IMG/VR virus record: IMGVR_UViG_3300037419_000842
DNA length: 64,000 nt
Source of the DNA: a virus
Reading direction: 5' to 3' (one strand)
The notes below the pieces were generated by a model. That model had not been told where the DNA came from, searched no databases, and worked only from the letters and a program-made list of their open reading frames with translations. The translations under genes were made by a program, and so were the position numbers. The first letter of the stretch is position 1, and the number at the start of each line of letters is the position of its first letter. Positions 8,607-37,130 of the stretch are shown here, piece after piece.

Positions 8607-11600
8607 TTAGATTTTGCCTCCAAGTTTTTTAACTCCATTTACAATTTCTGATGTGACAGCTTTCCCAGCATTCTTATCTCCAACAACTTTTTCAATGTTT
8701 ACGTCAATGTTATAAATAATATCTCCATTACCACTAGTGACGACAGGTCTTTGCAATGATTTTGCGAAACTCTTCATATTAGGAATAAAGTTATTTACAA
8801 TGTTATCTGCTGGAGAGAACAGTTCTCCTTCAAGAGCTTTAACAACTTGTTCGTTAGGTTTCGTATTCATAAGCTTATCTACTAGAGATGTTGTTCTGTT
8901 TACCGCCCCTCCAGAGCCAACAACTCCACCTTCATGGAATAGTTTTGTCTTCTTGGAACTGTCAGTATACCAAGCGCCACTTCCAGCGTCGTAGTACCAA
9001 CCATTAGCTTTTCCAATTGCCTGATTTGCCGCCGCAAGTTGACTTTGTTTAGCCTTGTCTGTTGTATTTTTCCATGCCTCTGCGTTCTTTTTCATTTGTT
9101 CTAAATCATTCATAGTTTTTACAGCAGTTGGATTGATAACCTCCATTTCCTTCTTCAAGTCAGCGAACTTATCAATCAAATTTGTTTGCAAATAACCAGC
9201 AATAGTCTCAGAATGATCTTTCATGAATGATTCAAATCCAGAAAACATTAGTTGGACGTTTTCAAAATGTCCAGACATTATTTGCTCTCTTACTGTATTC
9301 CATTTACGATCATCATTAATAATATTATCATAATACTTTGTTTGGGCTTCTTTTTCATCGTTAAGTTCCTGAATTGCAATATCATACTTTCTTTTTTCTG
9401 TTTTTCCCTTAATTGTAATCTCATATTCAGCATTATCTTTAAGATTTTGAATTCTCTCTTTTTCTGCGTCCAGTTGATCATCCAATGATTGCTGTTGAAG
9501 TTCAATAGAGTGGTCATATTGCATATTTTGAATGTCAAGATCAGCATCTGCGAGTTGCTTTTTAAGTTCTGCTAGTTTCTTTTGTCCTGCCGCTGTTTTG
9601 TCAAGTTCTGCAACGTTAATAGCATTTTGCAAGTCTTGTCTGTTTGTTTGAGCTTTCTCTAAGTCTTGGTTATATTTTCTAGCATCTTGATCAGCTTGCA
9701 AACTTGCTTTCTTTTGATTTACAAGTTTTTCGTAAGCATCTGATTGTTTGTCAAGAGATTCCATTTGAGCATCATGAAGCTTATTAATAGCGTCAATTTG
9801 AGCATCAATTCCATCAAGAACAATTTGCTTCTGTTGTTCGTAAGCATCTTTCAGCGCTTGAACAACATCGTCAGCTACTTGTTTAACCTGATCTTTTAAT
9901 GCATCATTTACACTAGCAATGCTTCCAGCCAATTCCCACCATTGATTACTCAATCCTTTAAGCTGATCTTCTAAGTCTTTTCTATCCTTGTCTTTGAGTT
10001 TGGTGTTCTTTAGCTGTTTTCTAACTTCTTCAGCTTCGTCATGGACAGCCTTTTGCATCTTCTTATAGATGTCAATTTGACTAATCAAGGCTTCTCTATA
10101 TTGTCTGGAGTCTTCAGGATATGTTGACATCTTATTTTGGATAAGAGCAAGAGAACCTTGAAGTTCTGTTAGCCTTGTATTGTACTGTTCAATCGAACTG
10201 CTTGACAATTCAAGTCCTTTAGAATTGATCTCACCTTGCGTATCAAGCCAACTTGAACCAAGACCATCGATTGTGTCACTAAGTTCTGCTATTTTTTGAG
10301 ACAATGTGTTGTATTTGTCTTTTCCTTCGTCGGATAGTTTATTGAAGCTTCCCATAGCACTAAGCTGTTTTTGATACCCATCTCTTAAGCCTCTAAGTCT
10401 ATCAGCTTCAGTATGCATCAAGTCTTGTCTATCGTGCAACAAACCAATTTCTTTAGTAAGTGCATTTCTATATTTTTGAGAGGTAGGAACATATCCTGCT
10501 AGAGCGGCCTCTGAAGACTGAATTTGTTTATCGATATTAGCGAGATTTCTATTATATTGTTCAGCAAGTTTATCAAATGCTTCAATATCTTTTTTTGTCT
10601 TATCTTTTTTATCCTTTTTAGGCTTAGTAGTATCAACTCCAACACTGCCAAGAGATTTTTGAAGAACTGTTGCACTCTGAGAAAGTTCGCCAATTTGATC
10701 AATGAATCCATCTAAATTAGCCGCTTCACCTGTGACTTGTTGTACATAGTCTGCTCCAAGCGAAGAATAGGTTGACAACTGTTTGGCAGTTTGTTCAGAA
10801 ACTTTGTTCTTAGCCGCTTCAGCATCTGCCACTGTTTGAATAGCGTGAATTTGAATACCATACATATTAAGCATCGCTACAAGGGTTTGGTTTGAATTAA
10901 TTAAATCTTCTTTTCTTGCTCTCGCTATTTTGTCAAATGCGTCAAGTTCTGCATCTCTTTTATCTTTAACGGCTTCTACGTTAATTTTAATTTGACCATG
11001 TTCGATTTTAAACATATCAACAAGTGATGCATCTTTTGCAATCAAGTCTGCCGCCGCTTGAGCGCTTACAGTCTTATTGTTAGCGTAATCATGAAGAAGT
11101 CCGTTCAAATCACTAAGAGAATCTGCGCTATCTTTGTAACTTGATATAAGTTCATCTGTTATTGTTTTAAAGTCTTTAAAGTTATGAGAGGCTTCAGTTG
11201 CGGTTCCGCCAAGTCCAAGCAAAGAATTTGCAAAAGAGTCTACATCTTCTACTCCAAGATCATGTGCAAGAGTTTTGATTCCAGCAAGCGCCGTCTGAAT
11301 AACTGCACCATTTCTTGAAAAAGAATCGTCAGCCATTTCTTTTTTAAATGTTTGAATTTGTTCAATTAGACTTGATATTCTAGCCATACCAGCATTAGCT
11401 GTGGCTTCAGTTGAATAATCAATTTTGTCTACCATTCCTTTTACAGTTTTAAGCAACGCATCTCCAAGTTGTGTGTCAGAGCTTTTGTCAAGATCATCTA
11501 CAAGTTGTTTGAATCTATCTTTTACGGAGTTGATTGAATCAGCAAGAGAAGATTGATCTACAATTACTTGAACCTTGTACTGAGCAATTCTTTCTGGATC

Positions 11601-29486: not shown

Positions 29487-29583
29487 TAAATAGGAATTAC
29501 TAGTGATTTATTGTATATTTTAATTATGATAATAAAAAAGTGATGATATCATTAGATACCATCACTTTAATGATGTTTATTAT

Positions 29584-29660
29584 TGGTACGGAATGGTGGG
29601 ACTTGCACCACACTATCAACTGCGCCAGCCGCTGGGTTTACTACTTAACTCTACATTCCG
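29584..29660 (-). pseudogene. Degenerate tRNA-like element, isotype undetermined
   Basis: Acceptor CGGAATG/CATTCCG and 3' CCA present; anticodon and T arms imperfect. Confidence 0.5.
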
Positions 29661-29743: not shown

Positions 29744-29820
29744 TGGCATCCCCGATGTGATTCGAACACATGCATATAGGTGTAGAAGACCTATGCCTTA
29801 ATCCACTTGGCTACGGAGAT
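29744..29820 (-). tRNA. tRNA-Arg(UCU)
   Basis: Anticodon arm TAGGT-CTTCTAC-ACCTA; GTTCGAAT; CCA. Confidence 0.9.
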
Positions 29821-29829
29821 ATATATGAA

Positions 29830-29934
29830 AAGCGTAAGCAACACTTTGCCGGGAGGCTTTACCGTAGCTATTCGGTGTGTTGCGGGATTATGCACTGTAG
29901 TCAGCAGGACACCACTAACCCATGGTCAACGCTT
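29830..29934 (-). ncRNA. Candidate structured ncRNA embedded in the tRNA array
   Basis: Terminal stem AAGCGT/ACGCTT, three-way junction closed by GCAACAC/GTGTTGC, possible pseudoknot GGGTTA/TAATCC. Confidence 0.55.
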
Positions 29935-29946
29935 AACAAACTTTTT

Positions 29947-30026
29947 TGGTAGAAGGTGAGGGAATCCAACCCATCCTATGACATCGCATATAAGGCGACC
30001 GCGCTCAAGCAGAGTGCTAACCTTCC
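29947..30026 (-). tRNA. tRNA-Ile(UAU), atypical
   Basis: Anticodon arm GTCGC-CTTATAT-GCGAT; acceptor GGAAGGT/ACCTTCT; CCA; T-loop TTGGATT. Confidence 0.7.
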
Positions 30027-30750: not shown

Positions 30751-30826
30751 TTTGCCCTTCATTGGATTTGCACCAACTCTTCCTCAATCAAGTAGAGGCG
30801 TTCTAACTTTGCTAAACTATCGGGGC
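30751..30826 (-). pseudogene. Degenerate tRNA-Gln(UUG)-like element
   Basis: D arm GTTT/GAAC, anticodon loop ACTTGAT, T arm GTTGG-TGCAAAT-CCAAT; broken acceptor stem and no CCA. Confidence 0.5.
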
Positions 30827-32192: not shown

Positions 32193-32270
32193 TGGTTGCT
32201 ACGTGCTGGTAACGCTCCAGCTTAATCAGGCTTATGAAGCCAAACGAGATACTTACCTCTACCACCAGCT
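32193..32270 (-). tRNA. tRNA-Met(CAU)-like, imperfect stems
   Basis: Loop TTCATAA; T arm GCTGG-AGCGTTA-CCAGC; bulged acceptor; CCA. Confidence 0.6.
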
Positions 32271-35178: not shown

Positions 35179-35516
35179 ATTTCCTGCCATGACAGCCCTT
35201 TATAAACTGGAAAGGACAAGTCATAACAACCTATGAAATTAAACAAGGGATTTTATCGAATGGGCGTGATACCCAATGTATCACTAAGCCCTGATATTTA
35301 AGACTTCAACGTTGACTCATGTGAATTCTGAGTCGTAAACTTTAAGGTTTGATCTCTGAGCTTTGAGCTTTATATCACATTTTTAATTATCCCCAATGGA
35401 TTAATACTCTGCACGAGTTATCAAATAGTTCCTTTAACAGAACAACCTAAAAGTTGTAAATTTAACGTAATTTACGAAACGTATGAAGTTCTCCAGTTTT
35501 CGTCATGTCAGGAAAT
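35179..35516 (-). ncRNA. Candidate ~340-nt structured ncRNA downstream of the coiled-coil gene
   Basis: 15-bp closing helix (1 mismatch) plus an 8-bp second helix, several internal hairpins and a 7-nt periodic track; no credible ORF. Confidence 0.7.
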
Positions 35517-35611
35517 ATCAATTATTTATTTGCACCTTGCGGGACGCGCCAAGTCATCTTATTCTTATTGCAATAGGGAAGATGACTAGAAACCTAGAGA
35601 CCTATTTGACA

Positions 35612-36238
35612 TTAACCGCTAATTTCAATGTCTGTGCGCGTATTACTCTCACTCAGAAGAAAGTCAGCTTCTTTGTCAAATTCTTCAATCTGCTCAGTAA
35701 GTTTATCAATTGTCTTTTTCAGATCAATTGGATCAATAAACTTAACTTCATTGTCAAGATTGAATCCTTTCGTAATTTCTTCTACGGAAGCTTCTTTGCC
35801 CTTAGTTTCTTTGCCAAGAGCATTCTCAATACGCTTCTCAAGAGCTTGTTTTGCCTTCTCTTGTTCACGTGCGAGAACTTGAAGTGTCGTAGTGTACTGA
35901 GTACGCATCATGTTCAAAGCTTGACGATCATGAACAATTGAATTTTTACGTTCAATTACCTCTGCCACACTCATAACTTTTCCACTAGGGAAAGTTACCT
36001 GAGTGATTGCATTAGATGCAATGATTGCAGATTTAATCTCAGCACGACGAGCGATCAAGTCTCTGATAGATGCAAGAGATGCTTCAGCATTCTTTGCAAA
36101 ATTTTCAGGAGAAATATGACCACCAATTGGTTTAGAACCAACTTGAATACTTACGAATGCCGCTTCGCTAATTGCACGATTAATTCTAGCCTCAAGTACT
36201 CCCAATTCCGACAATGCTCTGTGTACGCTCAATTTCAT
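35612..36238 (-). CDS. 208-aa coiled-coil protein, resembling the DIP1984-like family
   Basis: MKLSVHRAL..L..LEARI; internal pseudo-repeat (MSVAEVIERK; SNAITQV / SNTRTDIEI); IDP motif. Family call unverified. Confidence 0.6.
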   Translation of the reverse strand: MKLSVHRALSELGVLEARINRAISEAAFVSIQVGSKPIGGHISPENFAKNAEASLASIRDLIARRAEIKSAIIASNAITQVTFPSGKVMSVAEVIERKNSIVHDRQALNMMRTQYTTTLQVLAREQEKAKQALEKRIENALGKETKGKEASVEEITKGFNLDNEVKFIDPIDLKKTIDKLTEQIEEFDKEADFLLSESNTRTDIEISG

Positions 36239-36332: not shown

Positions 36333-36361
36333 ATTATACCATTTTATCAGCCACTTGTCAA
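36333..36361 (-). promoter_or_regulatory. sigmaA-type promoter for the coiled-coil/ncRNA/tRNA unit
   Basis: TTGACA-17-TATAAT with TG extension. Confidence 0.7.
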
Positions 36362-36388: not shown

Positions 36389-36474
36389 TGGCGAGGGTGG
36401 GAGGATTCAAGCCCCTTAACAATGGTTTTGGAGACCATCTGCGCTCTCTGGCGACATTTAAGTTTCCTACCCCC
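36389..36474 (-). tRNA. tRNA-Trp(CCA)-like with an insertion between acceptor and D arm
   Basis: ATGGT-CTCCAAA-ACCAT; G73 CCA; 5' region about 10-14 nt too long. Confidence 0.55.
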
Positions 36475-36501
36475 AAGCATGCGAGCGTTCCGCTCTAGGT
36501 A

Positions 36502-37048: not shown

Positions 37049-37130
37049 TTATTCTTCCACCCTTCGGCTCAACGTAATACAAATTATACCATATAGATTA
37101 ATGTATGTCAACAACTTTTTTAAAATAAAT

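Follow-up and report, generated by a model that had tools for sequence, protein, structure and literature searches.

We describe an insert of 105 nt in the tRNA operon of a soil phage, which is probably a real, discrete structured RNA. It occupies positions 29830–29934 of the minus strand, between the genes for tRNA-Ile(UAU) and tRNA-Arg(UCU), in a window of 64,000 nt taken from a virus record of 169 kb (IMG/VR record IMGVR_UViG_3300037419_000842). The folding model gives good support to its closing stem and its three-way junction, and the fold of its 5′ domain is ambiguous. Stable RNAs other than tRNAs, among them T4 species 1/2 and T5 RNAs I–IV, are a long-established component of phage tRNA operons. 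Our preferred reading, a tentative one at most, is that the element is an accessory stable RNA of this kind, possibly self-dimerising. The general kind is already known from T4 and T5; the predicted fold is not catalogued in Rfam and is so far a singleton, a single unverified example that is predicted from sequence.

Location and Genomic Context

On the minus strand, the tRNA-Ile(UAU) gene (29947–30026; Rfam match at 29950–30026, with the CCA ending at 29947) is followed by a 12-nt A/U-rich spacer after the CCA (29935–29946), the element, a 9-nt A/U-rich spacer that forms the RNase P leader of the next tRNA (29821–29829), and the tRNA-Arg(UCU) gene (29744–29820), which was identified by tRNA and Rfam searches. 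The slot between the two tRNAs that had been proposed by the original prediction was thus confirmed. The GC content of the element is 51%, compared with 35% for the genome, which places it among the top 0.7% of 105-nt genome windows; fold computation and GC content present the whole element as a non-coding, GC-rich closed fold. In several relatives, Ile(UAU) genes are again present, often directly upstream of Arg(UCU). In the window phage, this gene gave a weak Rfam match and was missed by ARAGORN at default settings.

Perfect sigma-A-type promoters were found at 37111, 36870, and 36361, at the start of the minus-strand tRNA operon. The closest of them (36333–36361) is a 12/12 match plus TG. 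An intrinsic terminator at 29537–29568 closes the operon, and no minus-strand terminators were called between the promoters and this site. With a perfect sigma-A promoter on one side of the element and the operon terminator on the other, this layout supports its predicted co-transcription with the tRNAs. The operon context is also the basis for assigning the element to the minus strand. The G-U pairs previously cited in favor of that strand are a weak argument, because the plus strand folds better (−34.3 kcal/mol). The plus-strand ORFs at 29770–29952 and 29807–29959 were rejected as genes: both overlap tRNA genes in antisense and had no PHROG match.

The terminase of the phage shares 52% identity with that of Brevibacillus phage Sundance and 46–49% with those of the Tsamsa-group Bacillus phages, and a related contig was found within a Paenibacillus genome. 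Taken together, these matches indicate that the phage is most likely SPbeta/Tsamsa-like, with a host from the Bacillales.

Several other features of the operon were recorded. The last gene of the tRNA array (29584–29660, minus strand) is tRNA-shaped and includes a CCA, although its anticodon arm is abnormal; its D-arm, judged by eye, looks like that of T5 RNA3, and neither ARAGORN nor Rfam called it. Further tRNA-like genes on the minus strand that default ARAGORN missed were a Gln-like gene with a weak Rfam match (30753–30826), a Met-like (CAU) gene (32193–32270), and a Trp-like (CCA) gene with an extended D region (36389–36475). A non-coding stretch of about 400 nt (35180–35590, minus strand) follows a 208-aa ORF (35612–36238, phrog_1491), and similar sequence follows the orthologous ORF in three related loci (L013, L018, and L020). 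The stretch and the ORF probably constitute a larger conserved RNA-protein module.

Predicted Secondary Structure

All segments named in the original prediction were found on the minus strand. The 6-bp closing stem P1 (AAGCGT/ACGCTT) pairs the 5′ strand at 29929–29934 with the 3′ strand at 29830–29835, with pair probabilities of 0.55–1.0, the terminal pair being the lowest at 0.55. The three-way junction (29838–29883) is composed of the 7-bp helix P4, hairpins P5 and P6, and two AAA linkers, and its pair probabilities were 0.9–1.0; for the junction and P1 overall the values were 0.8–1.0, with the exception of the terminal pair. The junction domain folded alone had a z of −3.1 and an ensemble diversity of 0.5. 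Among 3000 dinucleotide shuffles, the junction descriptor was found in 1.3% (0.03% when A-rich linkers were required), the terminal stem in 1.1%, and both together in 0.03%; the descriptors were written after the sequence had been seen, and these frequencies are therefore optimistic. In 359 kb of tRNA-adjacent DNA of related phages, the element was the sole match to the junction descriptor. Thus, both of these predicted parts are borne out by the modelling. A likeness between the junction and the linker of the c-di-GMP-I riboswitch was dropped, as there was no Rfam match.

For the whole 105 nt, the z was −0.8, on par with shuffles. The three genuine tRNAs alongside scored −0.5 to −0.9 in the same test, and the whole-length z is therefore powerless here.

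The 5′ domain is less clear. Hairpin P2 (29911–29926), whose fold is uncertain, has a 6-nt loop, GGGUUA, which had been predicted to pair with UAAUCC (29885–29890) in a pseudoknot across the weak, bulged hairpin P3 (29891–29906). The topology would be H-type, loop 3 containing a hairpin. Before loop penalties, the pseudoknot helix contributes about −3.8 kcal/mol; on geometric grounds, pairing of all six loop bases would leave no linker, and the U-G pair closing P2 would have to open. Alternatively, the P3 segment forms the 3′ arm of a rival minimum-energy hairpin, which at −29.9 kcal/mol is better by 2.8 than the nested fold of the original prediction (−27.1 kcal/mol). A comparable pseudoknot occurred in 9.8% of the 3000 dinucleotide shuffles. 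With these two results, the pseudoknot is possible rather than established. The 5′ part folded alone had a z of +0.6, and it contains a palindrome, CCAUGG (29920–29925), that overlaps P2. In one relative, a 40-nt hairpin after tRNA-Asn (L020:8118–8150) had 16 of 18 nt in common with the 5′ domain and nothing else, and this was judged to be chance.

Palindromic Loop and Possible Self-Association

The P5 loop (29865–29872) consists of AA followed by the 6-nt palindrome UAGCUA and is a candidate kissing loop, a feature that the original prediction had not described. The HIV-1 DIS loop has the same layout, with two A's 5′ of a 6-nt palindrome. Palindromic kissing loops, e.g., AGCU, are used by OLE and GOLLD for RNA-only assembly (10.1101/2024.12.08.627333). 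These parallels favor self-association as a reading of the P5 loop. The palindrome is U/A-rich and weak (self-duplex −5.7 kcal/mol), and a palindromic loop was present in 2.9% of 3000 dinucleotide shuffles, a figure for a feature that was spotted after the fact. When complements of the loops of the element were sought elsewhere in the operon, nothing convincing was found. Provided that the element is a real structured RNA, self-dimerisation is possible, with our inclination being against it.

It is rather unlikely that the element represents a new, minimal phage RNA class of about 105 nt that self-assembles without protein, with a palindromic kissing loop on an A-rich junction and a switchable 5′ pseudoknot. 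If it did, it would be the smallest natural RNA-only oligomer in the GOLLD/ROOL/OLE theme and a tractable model for the stable RNAs of phage tRNA operons. The size of 105 nt makes the element cheap to probe, and the palindromic loop allows a one-gel test of RNA-only dimerisation.

Homolog Searches and the Ile(UAU)-Arg(UCU) Slot in Related Phages

Approximately 170 loci of related phages were gathered via three neighboring proteins. Searching 50,697 phage records as well as plasmids by blastn, with the complete element, each half, or the flanking sequence as query, yielded no homologs, nor did a single-sequence covariance model run over the gathered loci and 48 whole records. Four exact patterns were searched in IMG/VR, where the matches listed included only chance ones on inspection, and all matches to one exact pattern in metagenomes were due to chance. 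Samples of 151, 401, and 401 Bacilli/Bacillota genomes gave no homolog (three short matches were unrelated sequence), and two genomes with related prophages gave none either. The only other copy, from a single strain variant, was identical and hence shows no covariation. Because each of these searches either requires a near-identical sequence or is built on a single one, their outcome should be read as "not found" rather than "absent." According to the original prediction, a lack of homologs and of covariation would count against a new RNA. The first half of this holds, since no homolog was found; with searches of this sensitivity, it amounts to missing support rather than refutation.

The slot itself proved to be variable among relatives. 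In three loci (L028, L209, and L263), tRNA-Ile(UAU) and tRNA-Arg(UCU) stand back to back and the slot is empty. In L027, it holds a 116-nt tRNA-like RNA (9070–9185) with a very large variable arm. In TsarBomba, the same slot is occupied by a 90-nt double-pseudoknot RNA that is also found in Deep Blue, PBC2, and Kirov. Thus, the slot appears to take discrete, unrelated, swappable RNA modules, and the element behaves like one more of them. The presence of unrelated small RNAs in one slot in different Bacillota phages suggests that interchangeable accessory RNAs replace one another over time, which is what a race between defence and counter-defence would be expected to produce.

In the L027 RNA, acceptor, D, and T arms are combined with an anticodon loop of 4 nt and a giant variable arm that branches; among cultured phages, nothing matched it over its full length. 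The double-pseudoknot RNAs measure 90–110 nt and lie within tRNA arrays, namely those of TsarBomba, Deep Blue, PBC2, Kirov, and one IMG/VR phage (L514:4409–4497, L516:4396–4485, L012:6265–6362, L040:5540–5646, and L505:10832–10941); by eye, their pseudoknot pairings vary between members. Two relatives (L016:38–150 and L018:8280–8400) have in common a structured element of about 120 nt that lies between tRNAs and contains a Shine-Dalgarno-like run.

Proposed Release and Role

The sequence layout indicates that the element would be transcribed together with the tRNAs, from the promoter to the operon terminator. The release steps proposed here are based on tRNA processing in Bacillus. An RNase P cut at the 5′ end of tRNA-Arg would generate the 3′ end of the element, its 5′ end would come from cleavage within the A/U spacer that follows the CCA of tRNA-Ile, and exonucleases would trim the product to the 6-bp closing stem, leaving an RNA of about 105–115 nt. 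In the predicted fold, this RNA would have a rigid A-rich three-way junction and a more flexible 5′ domain. In the last and weakest step, the junction may present the palindromic loop, and two copies may pair loop to loop to form a small RNA-only dimer. What the dimer would do during infection is a guess: it may be a stable scaffold or a decoy, with an RNA-binding protein or a nuclease of the host as its partner.

The reading as a stable accessory RNA is based on the GC island between A/U spacers, the operon layout, the variability of the slot, and a junction and stem that exceed shuffles, and on the fact that T4 and T5 have stable RNAs of 100–170 nt in the same kind of place. Against it stand the lack of homologs and covariation in our searches, a whole-length fold equal to that of shuffles, the ambiguous 5′ domain, and the weakness of the palindrome.

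Alternative Explanations

Another possibility is that the element is non-functional, i.e., a GC-rich fragment that was captured into the spacer or is decaying there, which is degraded after tRNA processing and whose helices are in part chance and in part the remnant of an older RNA. The element was a singleton in all searches, its overall z was −0.8, and close relatives lack it. However, the real tRNAs alongside gave the same overall z, the junction helices are free of mismatches, and the ends pair exactly at the GC/AU boundaries, features that decay would erode quickly. We consider this explanation unlikely.

It is also rather improbable that the element is a remodelled tRNA-Ser(GCU), either a relic or a look-alike decoy that lacks the T-arm. 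In that case, the 5′ 42 nt would comprise an acceptor strand, a D-arm, and an anticodon arm, all degenerate, with GCU in the middle of a loop that has been shortened, and the junction domain would stand in place of the variable and T arms. When these 42 nt were compared, anchored at the end, with 665 tRNAs, the top five were all Ser(GCU) and in register from the 5′ end; the best score had a p of 0.03 against shuffles, in a test that was picked after the likeness had been seen. The closing stem is followed by a U-G dinucleotide, as at tRNA positions 8–9, and the altered tRNA-like gene of L027 lies in the same slot. Nevertheless, the best score of a local alignment had a p of 0.19, and isotype profile HMMs gave a p of 0.2 for Ser(GCU) and 0.47 overall. 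The element also had no ARAGORN or Rfam tRNA match (RF00005), which agrees with the original description of it as not a cloverleaf, and it has no T-loop and no 7-nt anticodon loop. Instead of a 7-bp acceptor stem with an NCCA or CCA-addition site, it has a 6-bp stem followed by UUCAU. Without a T-loop and CCA, the suggestion of a tRNA mimic is unsupported as far as a canonical mimic is concerned.

Action in cis only is a still less likely explanation. As an insulator, the element would guard the flanking tRNAs from misfolding and control how the long precursor is processed or degraded, e.g., as a barrier to 5′-to-3′ decay into the last tRNAs. A closed fold with short A/U spacers on either side, near the 3′ end of the operon, would suit such a role, but in relatives that lack the element the two tRNAs directly adjoin each other, and the fold goes beyond a plain stabilising hairpin in complexity. 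The least likely explanation, and a very improbable one, is a new class of self-cleaving ribozyme that would aid the release of the flanking tRNAs as theta ribozymes do, which the element resembles in size, possible pseudoknot, and tRNA adjacency (PMC10879173), but against which stand the absence of any Rfam ribozyme match at E up to 10 and of a hammerhead core, a loose HDV descriptor that gave only U-started, G-U-rich matches on both strands, and a fold that starts 12 nt from the tRNA end.

Comparison with Known RNA Classes

A total of 10,006 viral candidate RNAs were reported by Fremin et al. (2023; PMC10690425). The Rfam scan, at gathering thresholds and at E up to 10, placed no family on the element, and its two matches were chance ones on the other strand. 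This agrees with the earlier impression that no known riboswitch or ribozyme was present. Among riboswitches, the models for c-di-GMP-I, preQ1-II, c-di-AMP, and the others in Rfam had no match at E up to 10, and the element lies between tRNA genes rather than in an mRNA leader. Neither the catalytic cores nor the Rfam models of hammerhead, twister, pistol, hatchet, and twister-sister ribozymes were found in it, nor was the nested double pseudoknot of HDV/theta ribozymes, with G1, P1.1, and the catalytic C in J4/2. The original suggestion of a ribozyme thus found no known core behind it. [quoted passage not shown] The element is likewise small and tRNA-adjacent; unlike them, it lacks the HDV topology and a cut site at the tRNA end, its fold begins after the 12-nt spacer, and its stem joins both ends.

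The GOLLD, ROOL, and OLE models of Rfam did not match the element, and these RNAs are several hundred nt long, compared with 105 nt here. In terms of setting, ROOL resembles the element, which lies in a tRNA operon: it occurs in phages and prophages and is often close to tRNA islands. GOLLD and OLE self-assemble via kissing loops, including palindromes, and the element has one candidate kissing loop.

The Y RNAs (YrlA-like) of Tsamsa-group phages are similar to the element in that they are non-decoding, have a closing stem, and lie within the tRNA arrays of related phages. The search for bacterial Y RNA (YrlA/YrlB) features revealed no ACAGC(A/U)A stem motif, T-loop, or YrlA match on the element. 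A TROVE/Ro60-type gene was absent from the genome of the window phage in a search with a working control; for DUF2828, there was no match in this genome, and the search gave none in the control genomes either. The tRNA arrays of ten related loci (L009, L010, L011, L012, L033, L037, L038, and L040–L042) contain permuted tRNA-like elements with an ACAGCAA-motif closing stem, which by eye are Y RNA (YrlA)-like, and a DUF2828 gene adjoins such arrays. No elements of this type are present in the window phage.

The double-pseudoknot RNA of TsarBomba, Deep Blue, PBC2, and Kirov is comparable in length (about 90–110 nt) and, in TsarBomba, in position. A model built from five members of this family did not match the element, which lacks the 3′ pseudoknot of the family, where a hairpin loop is paired after a UAAA linker.

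The closest parallel in kind is provided by T4 species 1/2 (rnaC and rnaD) and T5 RNAs I, III, IV, and 2H, which are non-tRNA RNAs of 100–170 nt located in phage tRNA clusters. The T4 and T5 records annotate such small stable RNAs, those of T5 explicitly with function unknown. In T4 (L212:909–1172), the loop of the first rnaD hairpin has a 6-nt complement in GUAGCG, a segment present twice in rnaC, and by eye this is a possible rnaC-rnaD contact. No sequence homology to the T4 and T5 RNAs was detected, as alignment scores (14–20) were no more than chance and the model of the element had no match to them; they are also known stable transcripts, whereas the element is predicted only. Nevertheless, most of them are closed by a terminal stem, as the element is, and rnaD also adjoins a tRNA-Arg gene and has a 5′ hairpin with a stem and 3′ flank similar to those of the element. 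Like these RNAs, the element is neither coding nor a tRNA and, as a predicted folded unit, belongs to a tRNA transcription unit, and it adds a predicted fold that is not catalogued in Rfam to the RNAs of phage tRNA operons.
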